A stretch of DNA of 64,000 nucleotides from an uncultured delta proteobacterium (GTDB lineage: Bacteria; Desulfobacterota; Desulfobacteria; Desulfobacterales; JAHEIW01): assembly GCA_963706575.1 (NCBI GenBank), contig CAVPNL010000004.1, positions 192,001 through 256,000 on the forward strand. The letters are read 5' to 3'. Numbering within the stretch: the first letter of the stretch is position 1; the number at the start of each line of letters is the position of its first letter. Shown here piece by piece: positions 43,287 to 50,256 of this stretch. The notes under the pieces were generated by a model. The model did not search any database and was not told the DNA's origin. It worked only from the letters and a program-made list of their open reading frames with translations. Position numbers and translations under genes: made by a program.

Positions 43287-45236
43287 TTACCCCGAAGCGG
43301 GTAAGGAAATCGTTATAGTGCAGCCGCCTCCCGGATTATTCTCGGCCGTGACATCTCCTCCGATTAACTTGATAAATTTTTTGACCAGGGCCAGACCGAT
43401 TCCGGTACCCCGGGTTTTTCGGGCCAGGGCGTTGTCGACCCGGTAAAAATCATCAAAAATTTTGTTAAGCGCATGACGCGGAATCCCGGGCCCGTGATCG
43501 GAAACTGCAATTTTTATGCGGTTTGGTTCCTGATAGATTCGAATCGTGATCTCTTTTTCAAGCGCCGAGCGGCAAAATTTGATGCTGTTTTCAATCAGAT
43601 TGATCAACACCTGAATCATGGCTTCACGGTCATATTTAAACGGGCGGATATCCTCCTGAACAATTTTCAAGGTGAACCCTTCCTGCCGCAGTTTGGCCTG
43701 CATGACAGTTTGAACTTCTGCGGCCACCTCTTCAAATGTTCCCCGGGTCAGATTAAGAGATCGCTGTTTTTTCTCCAGTTTGGCCAGATCGAGAACATTG
43801 TTAATCAGACGGGACAGTCGGGAACCCTCGGAATTGATAATCTGAAAATACTCCTGTTCCCGTTCGCTATCTTTTGCAATTCCCTGCTCGAGCATTTCAA
43901 TGTACATCCGTATATTGGTTAGCGGCGTCTTTAATTCATGCGTAACCGATGAGACAAATTGCGAACGGCGCTCGGAAAGATCCACGATGGCCCGGGCGCT
44001 TTTATAGATCGCAAACAATCCGATTAAAAAAATGGCCGCCAGCACGACCATCATGATCATCAGCGTGTTGCGACCGGTGGAACGCGGAATCTCATCAAAG
44101 CTCAATGAGGCATTTAAAAATGCAAACGGCGACGGAAATGACCGCTTCAGGACAAATTTAGGGTTATGCGTTGCTATACCGCCTTGCACCAGCACAATTC
44201 CCCGGCCCTGATCCATAACCTGCAGGCGCAGGCTGGCATAGTCGGCCATGGGCTGGGCAATGAAGTAATTCTGCGTCAGATGCTTTAAAAACGCGCCTAT
44301 CCTTAATATGAAGCCCTGCCGGTATATTTTCTGGTTGATCATGATGCGGCGAAAGATAAACATTTGATCGGCGCCGATAAGGACCGATTGCAAGGGGGCG
44401 ACCTCCACTTGAAAATTTTCTTCATCCCGGGTTTCAGGTGCAGCTTCTCCTGGCGCATCTGCTTCGGGCTCCGACGGGTAGATCTCGCGGCGCCTGTATT
44501 TTTTGGCAGCCCGGTCCTTTTCATTATCCATCAGTGAATCTTCTGCAGCCGGACTGCGAGCGGGGCCACTTTTGGATAATGCCGCGGCCAGCGGGGCGGG
44601 GCTCTTGCCGGCTTCGCCAACTTCCTGGCGGGCCACATTTTTAGCCTGGGCCACGGTGACTTTTTCAAAGCGCTTTTCTTTTTGCCCGAGGCGGGCTTTA
44701 GGTTTCTGGGAGCGGGTTAAATCCAGATACTTTTCAGCAAATCCGCTTTGCTGCTTCTGTTCGGCTTCAGCCACCTCCCGGGCCGGCGGGACGGTTATTT
44801 TATCTGTAACGGCCGTGCGTTTACGGTTAAAGATGCGATTGGCGCTCTCCAGCCGGGCCACGGCATCTTTGCGATCCACGGCAACGGATTCCCCGGCCTG
44901 GGCCAGAGGCGTTTGAAATGATCCGTCGGGGTTATTCTGAAAATAGCCGAGGATATAACTCTGCGCCGGCAGGTGTGAAAGGGGTGAACGATTTTCTTCG
45001 AGACGCCCCCCGGGGGGGCTCATATAGAAATTGTATTCATCAATGGCGCGAGCCTCCTCCATCTGAACGAGTGCCTCAAGGGCCTGTTCCATTTCGTCAA
45101 ACAGGGTGTTGGCAAAAAAACTCAGGGTGGCGGTTTCTTCCTGCTCCAGGCCGCGATAGGTTCGCATTATAAAATATCCGAGCGGAATCGACAGGGTCAC
45201 ACAAAATATGAGAATTAAAATTTGTAAGCGTTTCAT
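43287..45236 (-). CDS. membrane sensor histidine kinase
   Basis: two TM segments around a large extracytoplasmic domain; THELKTPL, NLIENSIKF, DHGPGI, GTGIGL. Confidence 0.93.
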   Translation of the reverse strand: MKRLQILILIFCVTLSIPLGYFIMRTYRGLEQEETATLSFFANTLFDEMEQALEALVQMEEARAIDEYNFYMSPPGGRLEENRSPLSHLPAQSYILGYFQNNPDGSFQTPLAQAGESVAVDRKDAVARLESANRIFNRKRTAVTDKITVPPAREVAEAEQKQQSGFAEKYLDLTRSQKPKARLGQKEKRFEKVTVAQAKNVARQEVGEAGKSPAPLAAALSKSGPARSPAAEDSLMDNEKDRAAKKYRRREIYPSEPEADAPGEAAPETRDEENFQVEVAPLQSVLIGADQMFIFRRIMINQKIYRQGFILRIGAFLKHLTQNYFIAQPMADYASLRLQVMDQGRGIVLVQGGIATHNPKFVLKRSFPSPFAFLNASLSFDEIPRSTGRNTLMIMMVVLAAIFLIGLFAIYKSARAIVDLSERRSQFVSSVTHELKTPLTNIRMYIEMLEQGIAKDSEREQEYFQIINSEGSRLSRLINNVLDLAKLEKKQRSLNLTRGTFEEVAAEVQTVMQAKLRQEGFTLKIVQEDIRPFKYDREAMIQVLINLIENSIKFCRSALEKEITIRIYQEPNRIKIAVSDHGPGIPRHALNKIFDDFYRVDNALARKTRGTGIGLALVKKFIKLIGGDVTAENNPGGGCTITISLPASG

Positions 45237-45931
45237 TTTTCAGGTTCCAGCCGGTAGCCTTCCCCCCTGATGGTGGTTATAAGCGGCGTATCGCCGATTA
45301 AAAGGGCAATTTTTTTGCGCAGTTTTAACATATGAATGTCGACGGTACGGGTTTCGATATCGGCGTCGGCATATTGCCAAACCTCGGTGAGCAGTTCTTT
45401 TTTAGAGACGATCCGGTCGCGGTAGCGATGTAAATATGCGATGATATCCATTTCCTTGCGAGTCAGCTCAACGGTTTGACTTTGATATTCAGCGATCAGG
45501 TTTTTCCCGTCAAAAAAAATGTCATGAAAACGAATTTCCATGTCACCGGGATTTTTCCCGGTACGCCGCAAAACCGCCTCTACCCGCACCATAACTTCCC
45601 TGAGTGAAAATGGTTTGCTGATATAGTCATCGGCACCGGCATTAAAACCGGTAACGATATCATCCTCAGAGCCTTTGGCGGTAATGATGATAATGCCCTG
45701 GTCCGGCTTTTTCCGGCGAATTTCTTTGCAGATAGAAAACCCGTCGAGTGTCGGCAGCATGACGTCCAGCAGGATCAAATCGAACGGTTCGTTCAGACCC
45801 ACATTAAGCCCCTGCCCGCCGTCATCGGCGTCCCTAACTGCATAGCCATTGTAAACCAGCACATCAACAAGGCCGCGCAACAGGGCCGGGTCATCTTCAA
45901 CAACAAGAATACGTGCTTTCGGTCTTTTCAT
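45233..45931 (-). CDS. OmpR/PhoB-family response regulator
   Basis: LVVEDD, LDVMLP, GADDYISKPF, TRTVDIH, TIRGEGY. Confidence 0.95.
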   Translation of the reverse strand: MKRPKARILVVEDDPALLRGLVDVLVYNGYAVRDADDGGQGLNVGLNEPFDLILLDVMLPTLDGFSICKEIRRKKPDQGIIIITAKGSEDDIVTGFNAGADDYISKPFSLREVMVRVEAVLRRTGKNPGDMEIRFHDIFFDGKNLIAEYQSQTVELTRKEMDIIAYLHRYRDRIVSKKELLTEVWQYADADIETRTVDIHMLKLRKKIALLIGDTPLITTIRGEGYRLEPEK

Positions 45932-45951
45932 TTAACTCTGTCCACCCTTTT

Positions 45952-46074
45952 ATTGATCGCGGCAAGATGCCGCTCCCACAATCTCCTTAAAGGCATAATA
46001 CAGCACATTGTGATGATAAACAAAATAGTGGGAGTGGCTTCCAGCCACGATTTTGCTTCTCCGTTTTTCGCCGA
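45952..46074. repeat. REP doublet (GTGGGAG-type), inverted copy of 60483-60604
   Basis: attgatcgcggcaagatgccgctcccaca ... gtgggagtggcttccagccacgat with similar spacer. Confidence 0.85.
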
Positions 46075-46087
46075 ACCGATATCAAAC

Positions 46088-46190
46088 ATTATATCACATC
46101 GGCCCGATTTCAAAGTAAAAGTTATGTAAAATCCTGCCCCGTTTTTTTTACATTTCTTTGAATTGAGTTTTGAAGGCTTTCGACTAAAAT
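46088..46190. promoter_or_regulatory. divergent promoters with tandem direct-repeat boxes
   Basis: GTAAAA-N5-GTAAAA (46115-46131) and TTTTAC-N5-TTTGAA (46146-46162); -10 boxes TATAAT (minus, 46088-46093) and TAAAAT (plus, 46185-46190). Confidence 0.55.
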
Positions 46191-46256
46191 TAGAATTATA
46201 CGGCAGGGCCTAAAACCCTGCTCAAAAACCGATTAGATACACGAAAGGAGCAACCC

Positions 46257-47690
46257 ATGAAACCCACTCGTCTAAAATCATTTGTTTTGATTATCGTCTT
46301 GATTGCCGCCACCGGGGCGGCGATGGCCTATTCGGCCGGCGCGGGAAAATCCTGGCTTTCAGGCCTGATTGCCCGCCCCAGGGTAGACACTCCCCCCATT
46401 GGATCCGGCCCGGTAACCCTTAGCGGTCGTCTGGTCCAGGATAAAGTTTTGCAGGGATCGGATGGCAGAGTTCATCTGGCCTTAACCCTGCAGGCCGCTG
46501 AGGGTTTCGATCCGCAATCCTCAGAAGCCCGCAATGTCGATATGGTCATTGTACTGGATCGCAGCGGTTCAATGAAAGGCCGTAAAATTAATGACGCCCG
46601 GCAGGCGGTTTTACACCTTTTATCCGGCCTGACCGCCAAAGACCGCTTTGCGCTGGTCACGTATTCGGACAGGGTTCAGCAGGTTTCGGGTTTAAAGTAT
46701 GTCACCGCTGATCATGGCAAACAGCTGAAAGCGCTGGTTAGTGCCATTCGCGCCGGCGGTGGAACCAATCTGGGTGACGGACTCCAAACAGGCATCAACC
46801 TTATGCTGGCGGCAGATGAAAACGGAAATGCCAGAAAGCTAATTCTTATCTCCGACGGTCTTGCCAATAAAGGCATAACCGATGCCACCCGGCTTGGTCA
46901 GATGGCCGGTGTCGCCGTGGAAAAAGAATTTGCCGTTAGCACCGTCGGGGTGGGAAACGACTTCAACGAGCAGCTGATGACAACCATTGCCGACCGCGGC
47001 GCCGGAAATTACTATTATTTGGAAAACCCGTTGGCATTTGCTGAAGTGTTTCAAAAGGAATTTTTCTACACCCGCACAACGGTTGCAACCAATGTTTCGA
47101 TATCTTTTCCCCTGGGCAGCGGCATATCCGTCGTAGATGCCGCCGGGTACCCCATCACCGTTCAAAAAGACCAGGCCGTTTTCTACCCGGGCGATTTGCG
47201 CGCCGGACAAACCCGCAAATTGTTTCTGACGTTGCAGGTGCCCACCGGCGAACCGGGAAGTTTTGAACTGGGTCGGATCAAGGCCCGCTGTCGTTTCAAC
47301 GGCCAGACAATGGAAACCGATCTGGGGGGTTCTTACAAAATTGCCTGTGTCAAAGACCAAAGAGAGGTGCAGGCCTCGATCGACAAAACCTCCTGGACTG
47401 AAAAAGTCATTCGAGAAGATTATAACCGGCTCAAACAGGAAGTCGCCGCTGATATCAAGTCCGGCAAAAAGCAAAAAGCCCTGGGACGAATCCACAGCTA
47501 TTACCGTGAGCAAGAATCGATCAATGCAGCCGTCGGGTCGGCCGAGGTCACCCAAAATCTGGATCGGGATCTCAAAGACCTGCAGCAAAGAGTCGAAGAT
47601 ACGTTTGAAGGCTCTCCGGCTGCAGTTTCCCGGAAACAAAAATCCAATTCAAAAACCCTGCAGTATGAGGGTTATAAAGGGCGACGATAA
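46257..47690 (+). CDS. exported vWA-domain protein (YfbK-like)
   Basis: signal/anchor peptide; VLDRSGSM MIDAS, GGTN, LISDGLAN, GAGNYYY. Confidence 0.9.
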   Translation: MKPTRLKSFVLIIVLIAATGAAMAYSAGAGKSWLSGLIARPRVDTPPIGSGPVTLSGRLVQDKVLQGSDGRVHLALTLQAAEGFDPQSSEARNVDMVIVLDRSGSMKGRKINDARQAVLHLLSGLTAKDRFALVTYSDRVQQVSGLKYVTADHGKQLKALVSAIRAGGGTNLGDGLQTGINLMLAADENGNARKLILISDGLANKGITDATRLGQMAGVAVEKEFAVSTVGVGNDFNEQLMTTIADRGAGNYYYLENPLAFAEVFQKEFFYTRTTVATNVSISFPLGSGISVVDAAGYPITVQKDQAVFYPGDLRAGQTRKLFLTLQVPTGEPGSFELGRIKARCRFNGQTMETDLGGSYKIACVKDQREVQASIDKTSWTEKVIREDYNRLKQEVAADIKSGKKQKALGRIHSYYREQESINAAVGSAEVTQNLDRDLKDLQQRVEDTFEGSPAAVSRKQKSNSKTLQYEGYKGRR

Positions 47691-47702
47691 AAGGAGATAA
47701 TC

Positions 47703-48263
47703 ATGGCCATTTTAACCCGTATTTTCCGGCTTTTTAAAGCAGACATCCATGGTGTCATGGATCAAATTGAAGACCAGGGTCTGTTATTAAAACAGCATCT
47801 CAGGGATATGGAAGAATCCCTGGTTCAGAAAGAGACCAAACTTAAGCAAATGTGTTTTGCAAGGGATCAGGCCCGGCAGGACTATGAGAAGGGAATAAAA
47901 GAGAGCAACAACCTGGAGCAAAATCTGGAAGTCGCCATCCGAAAAGACAGAGACGATATTGCCCGCATGCTGATAAAAAAGCTAAAACCCCTGGCCCACA
48001 TCCAGTCGGAGCGCTGCAGTCATATCGACCGACTGAATCATGAAACCAAACAGTTCAAAGAAGATATTGAACTGCAGCGGCTGAAATATGAACAGCTCCG
48101 GCAACAAGCTGCCAATTTTTTCCATCGTACCGAAAAACAGAATGAGGATCCTATCTGGCCGGCGATGCAAGCCGACTTTGGCGTCAATGATCTCAGCGAT
48201 GAAGAGATTGAACTCGAACTTCTCCAAAGAAAGGAAGCCTTAAAAGGAGGTGCAATATCATGA
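47703..48263 (+). CDS. PspA/IM30 family protein
   Basis: MAILTRIFRLFKADIHGVMDQIEDQ..LLKQHLRDME N-terminus, coiled coil, DDIAR. Confidence 0.85.
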   Translation: MAILTRIFRLFKADIHGVMDQIEDQGLLLKQHLRDMEESLVQKETKLKQMCFARDQARQDYEKGIKESNNLEQNLEVAIRKDRDDIARMLIKKLKPLAHIQSERCSHIDRLNHETKQFKEDIELQRLKYEQLRQQAANFFHRTEKQNEDPIWPAMQADFGVNDLSDEEIELELLQRKEALKGGAIS

Positions 48264-48829
48264 GCATCATGAAATCCAAGACAACGCCCATACGCTCGAC
48301 CATCGTCTGGGGATTGATTGGCGGGCTGGTTTACATTCCGCTATCCTCGGCCTTAAGCCTTATGATGTTCTGGCCGCTGGGCATTCAACTATCACTCTGG
48401 ATATTGTTGGCCGGATACGCAGTCCTGCTGTCCCGCTGGGCGTCCCGACCGCTCAGATCTATCGGTTTACCTCTGTTGCTGTTGCTCCTGTCTGCGTTTT
48501 TGATTGAGTCAGCGACGGCATTTTTATTTACAGCTTTCGTGACGTTGAGCTGGATTCGCAGTGGTATCTGTTTCAAAAGAAAACCCCTGGCAAAACGACT
48601 GGCTGCGGAAATGGGCCTGGGCCTGGGAAGCGGCCTGCTGGTGTCGGGTGCGGTGCCCGGCGTGACCCTGGTCTGGGCGCTCGGGGTGTGGCTGTTTTTT
48701 CTCATCCAGGCGCTGTACTTTGTTCTATTTGAATATCAAAGTGACCCCCAAACCAAAATTGAAGTGGATCCCTTTGAAAAGGCGAAGATGGCAGCTGAGA
48801 AAATCCTGTCCGGCGGGGCTTTTTATTGA
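48260..48829 (+). CDS. multi-pass membrane protein
   Basis: about 6 hydrophobic segments; ATGA overlap with the pspA-like gene; C-terminal DPFEKAKMAAEKIL. Confidence 0.8.
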   Translation: MSIMKSKTTPIRSTIVWGLIGGLVYIPLSSALSLMMFWPLGIQLSLWILLAGYAVLLSRWASRPLRSIGLPLLLLLLSAFLIESATAFLFTAFVTLSWIRSGICFKRKPLAKRLAAEMGLGLGSGLLVSGAVPGVTLVWALGVWLFFLIQALYFVLFEYQSDPQTKIEVDPFEKAKMAAEKILSGGAFY

Positions 48830-48907
48830 CATTGACGCTGGACTCTGATGAAAAAGAAATTATAATAGTCTATCTGATAGAAGTCGGAGGTAGAAAAAAT
48901 CAAAAAA

Positions 48908-49612
48908 ATGGCGCAAAAGAAAATCAGACATAAACTGCCGCCCGATCTTGCCGGCCAAAATAAGCTGGAAATCGTTTTGAAATCTGATGTGGCCGGCACG
49001 GCAGAGGCCATTGGTGCCAGCCTGTCTGAAATTGAGGTCCCCGGTGTTCAAATCGACCTTATCCAGATCGGGATCGGCAAAGTATCCAGGTCTGATGTGC
49101 TCATGGCACGCACCGGCAGCAGATTGGTGATCGGATTCAACGTCGATCTTATGCCAAAGCTGAATCAGGAAATCAAAGAATTCGGTGTTGAGGTAAGGCT
49201 TTATGATACGATCTATAAATTGACCGAAGACATTCGAAAAATTGCTCAAAGCTTTAACATCACGTCCCCCGAAGAAAAAATCACCGGCAAAGCCACGATC
49301 ATTGCTACTTTTAAGCCCGGCCCGAAAGGAATGGTTATCGGGTGCGAGGTGCTTGAAGGCGCCATTGAGCTGGGCAATGAATTTCGGGTCATCACCGCCA
49401 TGGGACCGGCTTATTTCGGAAAAATCACATCCCTGCAAATTGAAAAGCAAAATGTCAAATCGGGCAAACCCGGACAGCAGGTCGGAATCAAACTGGTGGG
49501 ATGGAACAAGGCCAGAGTCGATGACCTGGTGGAATGTTTTGAAAGCCTGAAACCGAAAGGGGGCGGCCGCTGGAAGCCCGGCAGCGGCGTTGTTCGTTCC
49601 ATCTCTTCGTAG
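48908..49612 (+). CDS. stand-alone translation initiation factor IF2 C-terminal (domains III-IV) paralogue
   Basis: IVLKSDVAGTAEAI, GIGKVSRSDV, IGFNV, VEVRLYDTIYKLTEDI, GCEVLEG, ITSLQIEKQNVKSGKPGQQVGI, DLVECFE follow the IF2 C-terminal motifs in order; no G domain. Confidence 0.85.
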   Translation: MAQKKIRHKLPPDLAGQNKLEIVLKSDVAGTAEAIGASLSEIEVPGVQIDLIQIGIGKVSRSDVLMARTGSRLVIGFNVDLMPKLNQEIKEFGVEVRLYDTIYKLTEDIRKIAQSFNITSPEEKITGKATIIATFKPGPKGMVIGCEVLEGAIELGNEFRVITAMGPAYFGKITSLQIEKQNVKSGKPGQQVGIKLVGWNKARVDDLVECFESLKPKGGGRWKPGSGVVRSISS

Positions 49613-49683
49613 AATCATGGTTTCCCTCCTTCGTCTTAAAGGCTACGGAGGACAAACAGGTGTCAGGCGTCGGGGTCAAAAGA

Positions 49684-49870
49684 TAAGTGCTGAGGACTGA
49701 GCAAAAAAAATTGCCTGGCGCCCGACCAGTTCAACATGACTTGTCGGTTTCCGCCATGAATCGTCCTTCTGGGACCATGAGTTGTCGTTTTCCGCCTTGA
49801 ACTGGCAAGACCTTTTTCGCCCTTTTAGATTTAGATCTACCTCAGACCTCGGCACTCAGTCCTCAGTCCT
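49684..49870. repeat. 7-nt-unit inverted repeat (GTGCTGA/GGACTGA vs CTCAGTC) enclosing an 80-bp element
   Basis: gtgctgaggactgag ... ctcagacctcggcactcagtcctcagtcct; inner CCAGTTCAA / TTGAACTGG. Confidence 0.65.
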
Positions 49871-49935: not shown

Positions 49936-50256
49936 ATGGCAGTTAACTTTATTTATATGACCGCCGGCAGTAAAAGCGAAGCCCAAAAAATCGGGAAAGC
50001 ACTGGTTGAATCCCGCCTGGCTGCATGTGTGAACATTTTAGATAACATGCAGTCCATTTATCGATGGGATGAAAAAATCCAGGAAGATACAGAGGTGGTT
50101 TTAATTGCCAAAACCACTGACACGCTGGTTCCCCAGCTGATCGACAAAGTCAAATCGCTGCATAGTTACGACTGCCCCTGCATTGTCAGTTTGCCGGTAT
50201 TAGACGGCTACCCGCCGTTTTTGGACTGGATCCAAACGGAAGTCAAAAGGCAGTAG
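49936..50256 (+). CDS. cutA: divalent-cation tolerance protein CutA
   Basis: LVESRLAACVNI, SIYRW, HSYDCPCIV. Confidence 0.95.
   Translation: MAVNFIYMTAGSKSEAQKIGKALVESRLAACVNILDNMQSIYRWDEKIQEDTEVVLIAKTTDTLVPQLIDKVKSLHSYDCPCIVSLPVLDGYPPFLDWIQTEVKRQ

Follow-up and report, generated by a model that had tools for sequence, protein, structure and literature searches.

Based on its reading frame, domain content, homologues and evolutionary constraint, we confirm that the window (the whole stretch of DNA analysed here, 64,000 nucleotides long) contains an intact gene encoding only domains III and IV (C1 and C2) of the translation initiation factor IF2, and that this gene belongs to a monophyletic, selected family of stand-alone infB paralogues (Table 1). 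The ORF at 48908-49612 (+) specifies 234 aa and is free of internal stops; upstream, a TAG in the same frame (48878-48880) lies 9 codons from the ATG and restricts the open frame to 243 aa, and therefore no G domain can precede it. Pfam recognizes PF11987 (IF-2) at residues 17-109 with an E-value of 2e-25 and EF-Tu D4/D2 at residues 140-198, while the InfB profile TIGR00487 is matched only over its positions 385-581 of 587, with 131 bits against a cut-off of 424. Domain III is also matched structurally (VIA-align Z 16, rmsd 1.7 over ~102 residues). The protein aligns with E. coli IF2 687-883, so that an E. coli number is obtained by adding 669 to the residue number; IF2 positions are given below in E. 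coli numbering. The first-pass annotation, which had described a stand-alone frame without stops covering IF2 domains III and IV, is thus borne out by translation, Pfam and profile, and the divergent motifs it had singled out, SLQIEKQNV and QQVGI, are both present and aligned to the IF2 motifs it had named. The mis-assembly it had kept in view is excluded by the 641-kb contig and the identical gene order in congeners.

The full-length infB that it had expected elsewhere in the genome lies on another contig (G000:C6:537919-540495) and encodes an 858-aa IF2 with a G domain within a nusA-infB-rbfA operon; from their translations and order we take the ORFs around it to be rimP, nusA, rbfA, truB and pnp. 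The 234-aa protein shares 29% identity with this host IF2 over 200 residues, gap-free. The host genome also carries fmt. As a separate observation, another genome (G383) holds a second full infB (L131, G383:C47:10495-14103), a 608-aa frame with a canonical pocket and lower GC, whose product is 49% identical to host IF2, the other copy of that genome being 60% identical; it is probably contamination of the bin (4%).

Table 1. Features of the IF2 domain III-IV gene and its surroundings, in window positions (residue numbers refer to the 234-aa protein)
Feature	Positions	Strand	Basis
VWA-domain gene, PspA/IM30 gene and membrane-protein gene (context outside the family)	46257..48829	+	Pfam
Terminator-like hairpin (48804-48818) and T run, end of upstream membrane-protein gene	48804..48828	+	Consensus scan
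Promoter-like element: -35 hexamer, 16 nt, TATAAT	48839..48866	+	Scan and conservation in relatives
Stand-alone IF2 domain III-IV (C1-C2) paralogue gene, 234 aa	48908..49612	+	ORF, Pfam, profile, homologues, selection
Basic low-confidence N-terminal extension, residues 1-17	48908..48958	+	Positive net charge in 49/53 members; pLDDT <50
IF2 domain III (C1), residues 18-115	48959..49252	+	K694, D696, G699, G726, D732 and Y772 retained (E. coli numbers)
Inter-domain linker, residues 116-122	49253..49273	+	Block of lower pLDDT
IF2 domain IV (C2) beta-barrel, residues 123-213	49274..49546	+	Pfam; net charge median +4 vs 0 in IF2
Family-specific beta-hairpin 163-167 (S/T-A-M-G-P) in place of the invariant R832 hairpin of IF2	49394..49408	+	Residue counts
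Rebuilt fMet-pocket wall, residues 175-193	49430..49486	+	Residue counts; pocket definition from PMC4783127, accessible text
C-terminal tail specific to the family (W222, P224, strand 227-231)	49547..49609	+	Predicted fifth strand of domain III
cutA, 3' neighbour in the Desulfobacterales lineage	49936..50256	+	Pfam, congeners

Distribution, phylogeny and selection

Homologues of the same length, proposed at the outset as a check, were recovered by every search. Searching with the single sequence produced 591 matches from 865 candidates (E <= 1e-10), of which the best 120 are 211-264 aa long; with a profile, 895 of 5938 candidates passed E <= 1e-45, and the best 120 of these measure 218-321 aa. 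Both searches were length-limited. When the limit on length was lifted, the 23 best representatives (>135 bits) were 127-281 aa long and full-length IF2 first appeared at 129 bits. Family length, ~220-270 aa, is uniform across two phyla, Desulfobacterota and Nitrospirota. In a set of 7998 candidates of 467-2000 aa, no fused form reached E <= 1e-60, which is weak evidence, and three candidate members (P0145, P0169 and P0270) were rejected as pieces of IF2. A scan of species genomes yielded 52 loci, all short stand-alone frames, from genomes titled Desulfobacterales, Desulfobulbaceae, Syntrophobacteraceae, Nitrospirota or Thermodesulfovibrionales, or unplaced.

Within these two phyla the family is patchy and occurs beside a normal infB. 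Among congeners the gene is found in 16/21 (14 whole, one cut by a contig end and one with its 5' part deleted), the five genomes lacking it being 78-91% complete, and in other families of the order in 1/36 genomes. A draw from the phylum contained it in 10/400 genomes, nine of the ten with a second match, which in the five cases listed is a long IF2 frame; a draw around a Nitrospirota carrier contained it in 1/150, and infB is likewise present in all five further carriers examined. Clusters of family length from the same phyla, all without a name, occur in the ESM Atlas. In databases the members go under "translation initiation factor IF-2" or else "hypothetical protein", labels that hide the family. 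Pfam matches of all 53 members analysed are confined to three IF2/EF-Tu-type families (PF11987 in 53/53, PF14578 in 49/53), and neither Pfam nor NCBIfam was found to have a model for the family as such. A link to RqcH-dependent ribosome quality control was considered and rejected, RqcH (PF05833) being present in 2/10 carrier genomes searched, a count that incomplete genomes can depress.

In a FastTree phylogeny the 53 family rows fall into a single clade, apart from the 97 IF2 rows (support 0.999, stem 0.60). A quick IQ-TREE run on 32 of these family rows and 40 of the IF2 rows likewise recovered the clade (SH-aLRT 100), did not place it with Desulfobacterales IF2, and gave its stem as 0.92 + 0.81 across the midpoint root; the Nitrospirota members grouped together (SH-aLRT 97). 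We rejected reading a donor lineage from the IF2 rows nearest the family, since these rows (P0205, P0250) are themselves divergent and probably subject to long-branch attraction, and we claim no root. One of them, P0205 (also P0369), is a bacterial-type IF2 of 669 aa with a divergent fMet pocket that is labelled Aenigmarchaeota archaeon, possibly through mis-binning.

The proposed test of constraint revealed strong purifying selection: across 75 of 78 pairs from 13 congeneric genomes the median Nei-Gojobori dN/dS is 0.074 (range 0.037-0.129), compared with 0.034 for the same part of infB, three pairs having been dropped for saturated infB dS and the pairs not being independent of one another. 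Domain III (0.056) is at least as constrained as domain IV (0.082). Synonymous divergence of the family gene tracks that of infB (ratio 1.03, rho 0.80), which fits co-inheritance, and the GC and GC3 of the gene resemble those of its neighbours. Truncated copies do occur: two 5'-deleted or remnant copies retain residues 99-233 (L018) and 126-233 (L132), both with flanking genes in place, and a third retains residues 196-233 (G022:C1:5025001-5025114). These copies, from the related genomes G018, G022 and G023, indicate that the gene can be lost. They are also what could be cited for the suspicion, voiced at the start, of an infB piece undergoing decay or an artefact of assembly, which the median dN/dS, the uniform length in two phyla, the separate clade far from host infB and the neighbour-like GC and GC3 refute to the point where we give it practically no credence.

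Transcription signals and genomic neighbourhood

The upstream TATAAT reported in the first-pass annotation is present at 48861-48866, and belongs to a promoter-like pair with a -35 hexamer 16 nt away. As a single match this does not exceed chance, the window having 7 promoter-like sites against 4.1 +/- 2.2 in shuffles; it is conservation in relatives that distinguishes the element. The 28-mer recurs with <=4 mismatches at 8 of 17 related loci, a further three have its 3' half only and six are without it; its distance from the ATG in these loci is 45-253 nt, and the genome has a single copy of it when up to 6 mismatches are allowed. It is probably the gene's own promoter. The GGAGG noted alongside it does exist (48886-48890) and was rejected as the ribosome-binding site, for which it is a poor candidate because it lies 17 nt before the ATG and its position is not kept in the 15 relatives inspected.

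As had been noted, nusA and rbfA are absent from the surroundings; the gene order in the host lineage is VWA, PspA, membrane protein, the IF2 III-IV gene and CutA. Co-expression with the upstream genes, which had been suggested, finds weak support: the terminator-like hairpin (weak evidence by the scan, which gave 12 sites of this kind where shuffles gave 6.8 +/- 3.0) and the conserved promoter-like 28-mer both intervene between the membrane-protein gene and the ORF, and judged from these signals independent transcription appears likelier than an operon. That membrane-protein gene is a neighbour at only 16 of 52 loci, the others having unrelated neighbours, and the linkage to pspA is accordingly lineage-limited. 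Scans of the neighbouring genes did not reveal a conserved context of translation genes. Contigs from RNA libraries cover parts of the ORF in 4/4 runs, mostly at 85-95% identity; 28-30 of 30 bins of the 6.5-kb stretch are covered, holders have only 5-7% of the words, and the contigs may derive from DNA.

Among the genes near the more distant members are MsrAB, Hsp20, Usp, rubrerythrin, thioredoxin, DegP and GroEL. In a scan such stress genes made up 14/206 genes near these members and 2/145 in control regions of the carriers (Fisher p 0.018), one neighbour scan having left out repeated families. We nonetheless rejected a stress-gene neighbourhood, since the set was picked after the neighbours had been viewed, the loci are related, a single locus accounts for three of the hits, and the excess vanishes with a more broadly defined stress set (15/206 vs 7/145, p 0.38). 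At seven Nitrospirota loci (L057, L065, L072, L073, L076, L077 and L083) one gene family, identified as MsrAB in the two members scanned, occurs within 6 kb of the IF2 III-IV gene, which may reflect inherited gene order only.

Three further features of the surroundings were observed. A sensor kinase and an OmpR-type regulator are divergent from the VWA-domain, PspA/IM30 and membrane-protein genes in a genus-conserved module (43287-48829) that looks like an envelope-stress unit. An intergenic repeat at 49650-49870, with 12-nt inverted arms (49690-49701 and 49855-49866) and ~20 genome copies (78-84% identical), resembles a small non-autonomous element. Another intergenic repeat at 45950-46050 consists of two short conserved arms around a variable middle and has ~20-30 genome copies; many variants of it occur in sediment runs, and in L032 there is a similar palindrome upstream of the gene.

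The fMet pocket, rRNA-contact residues and C-terminal tail

Residues were counted in alignments of 53 family and 97 IF2 rows and in a larger set of 145 members. According to the accessible text of PMC4783127, the fMet-A76 pocket of IF2 comprises S844, R846, R847, F848, K849, F804, F809, I812, C815, E860, C861 and G862, where R847 and F848 cradle the fMet; part of a preprint (10.64898/2026.06.26.734871) describes F804 and F848 as flanking fMet and R846 as wrapping A76. The floor of this pocket is nearly invariant in the 145 members (F804 in 144, C815 in 143, S844 in 145, G862 in 145), and G814 is kept in all 145. The pocket wall has been replaced: R846 by H/Q in 140/145, R847 by I in 133/145 (R in 3), F848 by E/G in 129/145, E860 by Q in 131/145 (K also occurs; E in 1) and C861 by V/A/I in 142/145, while K849 is retained in 63/145. 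None of four diagnostic states (R/H847, F/Y/H848, E/D860, C861) is kept in 52/53 members, whereas three or four are kept in 93/97 IF2 rows and two or fewer in 4/97. Three of the five pocket residues defined by NMR (R654, Q655 and E713 of G. stearothermophilus; PMC4611024, accessible portion) are likewise changed. These counts show that the family has lost the fMet-discriminating residues. In E. coli IF2 the single change R847G strongly lowers affinity for fMet-tRNA and suppresses the dominant lethality of GTPase-dead IF2, as reported in the available part of PMC8709274.

Several positions that in IF2 face the ribosome are kept: Y772 in 51/53 and 144/145 members, G726 in 52/53 and 145/145, and V725 as V/I in 140/145. 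Y772 adjoins the sarcin-ricin loop (SRL) when IF2 is extended (PMC4783127); in the compact factor its stacking partner is A1067 of H43, and that of V725-G726 is A2660 (PMC9192638, accessible text; P. aeruginosa numbers + 49). D833, which contacts G2661 of the SRL in the compact state, has become A in 138/145 members, and R832, present in 97/97 IF2 rows, occurs in 0/53 family rows, its hairpin being replaced by one with G166 in 144/145 and P167 in 140/145. On the switch-facing H10 helix E730 (87/97 in IF2) is K/Q/R, mostly K, in 137/145 members. The family-specific positions, namely hairpin 163-167, E147, K195 and R139-K140, are as conserved as those inherited from IF2. With a median pI of 9.2, both tails basic in 49/53 members and a net charge of +4 in domain IV compared with 0 in IF2, the family is shown to be more basic than the C-terminal half of IF2 itself.

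The C-terminal tail is marked by W222 (144/145) and P224 (132/145); the W-x-P signature occurs in 0/70 bacterial IF2 rows, 15 of the 85 rows being unparsed. Two AF2 models (pLDDT 91 and 87, pTM 0.68 and 0.57) both contain the strand 227-231. A two-chain fold of domain III against domain IV with the tail scored 0.70, the best of three controls scoring 0.00; this docking mark was reached by 116/157 solved complexes and 2/215 mismatched pairs. The runs agree in at least 81% of contacts with partner pLDDT of at least 79, and pair 227-231 with 95-98, W222 with I112/S115, and P224 with R72/L73/E95; the tail alone forms the partner side of the interface, with no confident contacts between barrel and domain III. 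On the domain III side E95, L98 and L73 are conserved in 144, 141 and 140 of 145 members, and the predicted interface thereby accounts for several family-specific positions of domain III. In intact IF2, domain III packs on the switch regions, and H12 faces the G domain when the factor is extended (PMC9192638). We infer from this that the tail would cap a surface orphaned by the loss of the GTPase: it is predicted to add a fifth strand to domain III near Y772 and to cover the H12 face, and might place R230 and R97 beside Y103. A conformation locked in the compact, GDP-like state was considered and drew no support from the models, which lie nearer to extended IF2 (TM 0.65-0.72, one model 0.70) than to compact IF2 (0.39-0.40), and which at their low pTM are not evidence against it. 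A sub-branch (L103, L104, L105, P0137 and P0144) ends just after domain IV and is devoid of the W-x-P tail, and two of its members, L105 and P0144, are also without part of the first barrel hairpin; the sub-branch thus offers a test, provided by nature, of what the tail does.

Past domain IV, mammalian mitochondrial IF2 (mtIF2) likewise shows W-x-P in matching register, within its W-D-P-G end, and the C-terminus of this protein is anchored close to both domain III and the G domain (PMC7287080, accessible text). It differs in being a full GTPase that binds fMet-tRNA, and in a chain that ends one residue past the aligned stretch and so lacks the extra strand. The likeness is assumed to be convergence, the trees having been built without mtIF2. 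Because the two chains docked are halves of one protein and mtIF2 carries W-x-P in the same register, the docking pass may partly be memory; for the strand 227-231, mtIF2 offers no counterpart that could have served as a template.

From IF2 itself (InfB, TIGR00487) the family inherits both folds, with order and spacing unchanged, at 28-38% identity, together with Y772, G726, F804, C815, S844 and G862. It differs in having no N domain, no G domain and no domain II, in falling below the TIGR00487 cut-off, in its replaced fMet wall and R832 hairpin, in a new basic N-tail and a W-x-P-strand C-tail, and in being a non-essential, patchy gene at its own locus outside the nusA-infB-rbfA operon. The family is a derived variant and not a member of IF2 proper.

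Comparable proteins and candidate functions

We propose, with roughly even credence, that the family provides a GTP-independent accessory protein of the factor-binding site of the 50S subunit that may hold the ends of non-formyl tRNAs. Under this proposal an old partial duplicate of infB, consisting of domains III-IV only, would have become an accessory protein whose domain III docks at the SRL and uL11 stalk and whose domain IV reaches towards H89/H71, there either blocking or guarding the factor-binding site or holding the 3' end of a tRNA without formyl-Met, most probably when cells are stressed or growing slowly. Loss of the fMet wall could have made a factor without GTP-driven release tolerable, by analogy with the R847G suppressor of GTPase-dead IF2. 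This reading is favored by the selected nature of the family, the retention of Y772, V725-G726 and the floor of the CCA groove, the basic surface, the predicted docking of the tail over the H12 face and the rescue by R847G of GTPase-dead lethality. Against it, we infer all of its binding steps, and the kept glycines and aspartates as well as F804 and C815 may be structural; the compact-state contacts D833 and R832 are lost, the tail result is subject to the reservation about memory, and the domain arrangement has the low pTM values given above. The gene, moreover, is rare (10/400), dispensable and without conserved translation-gene context. Isolated C1-C2 of IF2 may bind ribosomes poorly. The accessible part of PMC4783127 attributes ribosome binding of IF2 to domain I with domains II and III. 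A narrower formulation, which we advance only tentatively, is that these proteins are the first bacterial family of IF2 paralogues, SRL-docking mimics of IF2 in which the tail replaces the GTPase contact, and that they either block the factor-binding site (hibernation or anti-association) or grip the CCA ends of non-formyl tRNAs on the 50S subunit. Balon is reportedly a non-GTPase accessory protein near the factor-binding site that acts in ribosome hibernation; the likeness to it lies in the inferred role only, and Pfam families of the Balon-type hibernation proteins are matched by none of the 53 family members.

The retained pocket floor and the basic N-tail would also suit a protein that binds free tRNA 3' ends off the ribosome, with tails and barrel contacting uncharged or elongator tRNAs and domain III serving as a scaffold. 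The precedent is Pbp11 of Thermococcales, a GTPase-less, stand-alone barrel resembling EF-Tu domain II, whose flexible N-terminal tail is needed for tRNA binding (PMC9540759, accessible text). The match of our protein to its model NF041207 is weak (20.9 bits against a cut-off of 100), and Pbp11 is a single ~11 kDa barrel devoid of IF2 domain III. The rebuilt wall also resembles small stand-alone EF-Tu-D2-like barrels (~85 aa) annotated as "translation elongation factor-like", which share its beta4-beta5 signature: one of them scores 33.7 bits on the family domain IV profile and 15.5 on that of IF2, and profile-profile comparison gives a probability of 96% over 64 columns. The constraint on domain III, at least as strong as that on domain IV, and the kept, exposed Y772 are unexplained on such a Pbp11-like role, which we consider doubtful. 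The host itself encodes a small barrel of this kind, of 86 aa (G000:C4:635108-635365 (-); L134:4109-4366), found in 22/24 genomes of the host family and 123/401 of the phylum, five of the listed phylum matches lying in frames of 419-444 aa. Co-occurrence of the two genes, which the host family seemed to show, was rejected: the barrel is present in 1/10 phylum carriers (background 122/400) and 1/5 other carriers.

Exaptation for a partner outside translation, whether a protein or another RNA, contacted through hairpin 163-167, E147, K195 and R139-K140, would make sense of the high conservation of these positions outside the predicted tail interface, of the long stem branch in both trees, and of surroundings devoid of translation genes. 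We regard it as rather unlikely, as Y772, V725-G726, the CCA-groove floor and the basic surface are easier to understand as RNA contacts, and the absence of a fused partner domain among the longer candidates adds weak evidence in the same direction.

The first-pass annotation had favored a role in binding or sequestering initiator tRNA or in modulating initiation; in its strict form this would be a factor dedicated to initiator fMet-tRNA that damps initiation by binding or sequestering it. Isolated C2 of IF2 does recognize fMet and fMet-oligonucleotides (PMC4611024), F804, G814, C815, S844 and G862 are kept, the host has fmt, and some true IF2 rows, the 4/97 mentioned above, also keep no more than two of the diagnostic residues. 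Yet R847, F848, E860 and C861 are all replaced in 52/53 members, the NMR-defined residues are largely altered, and R847G alone suffices to cut the affinity strongly (PMC8709274). A role at the translation machinery thus stays plausible, while the specific binding or sequestration of initiator tRNA, its pocket wall replaced, is weakly supported and in our judgement quite improbable. Modulation of the GTPase of host IF2 or another translational GTPase, by binding its G domain in trans, would draw on the packing of domain III against the switch regions in intact IF2 (PMC9192638), and is rendered very improbable by the altered H10 face (E730 to K/Q/R) and the predicted covering of the H12 face by the tail.

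We found no published description of this family in the literature searched, most subscription journals and supplements having been outside its scope. In their accessible portions two surveys hold that bacterial IF2 has never been duplicated (PMC1780047; PMC4342817, with "zero bacterial duplications" for reasons that are unclear), the latter having kept only sequences with a G domain. The family would represent a route round this barrier to IF2 duplication, with the GTPase dropped, the fMet pocket disarmed and the orphaned surface capped, and offers a natural experiment on IF2 domains III-IV acting alone in a 26-kDa protein that is easy to test. If an SRL-docking mimic of IF2 is indeed what it encodes, the gene would point to an undescribed form of translation control in slow-growing sediment anaerobes.
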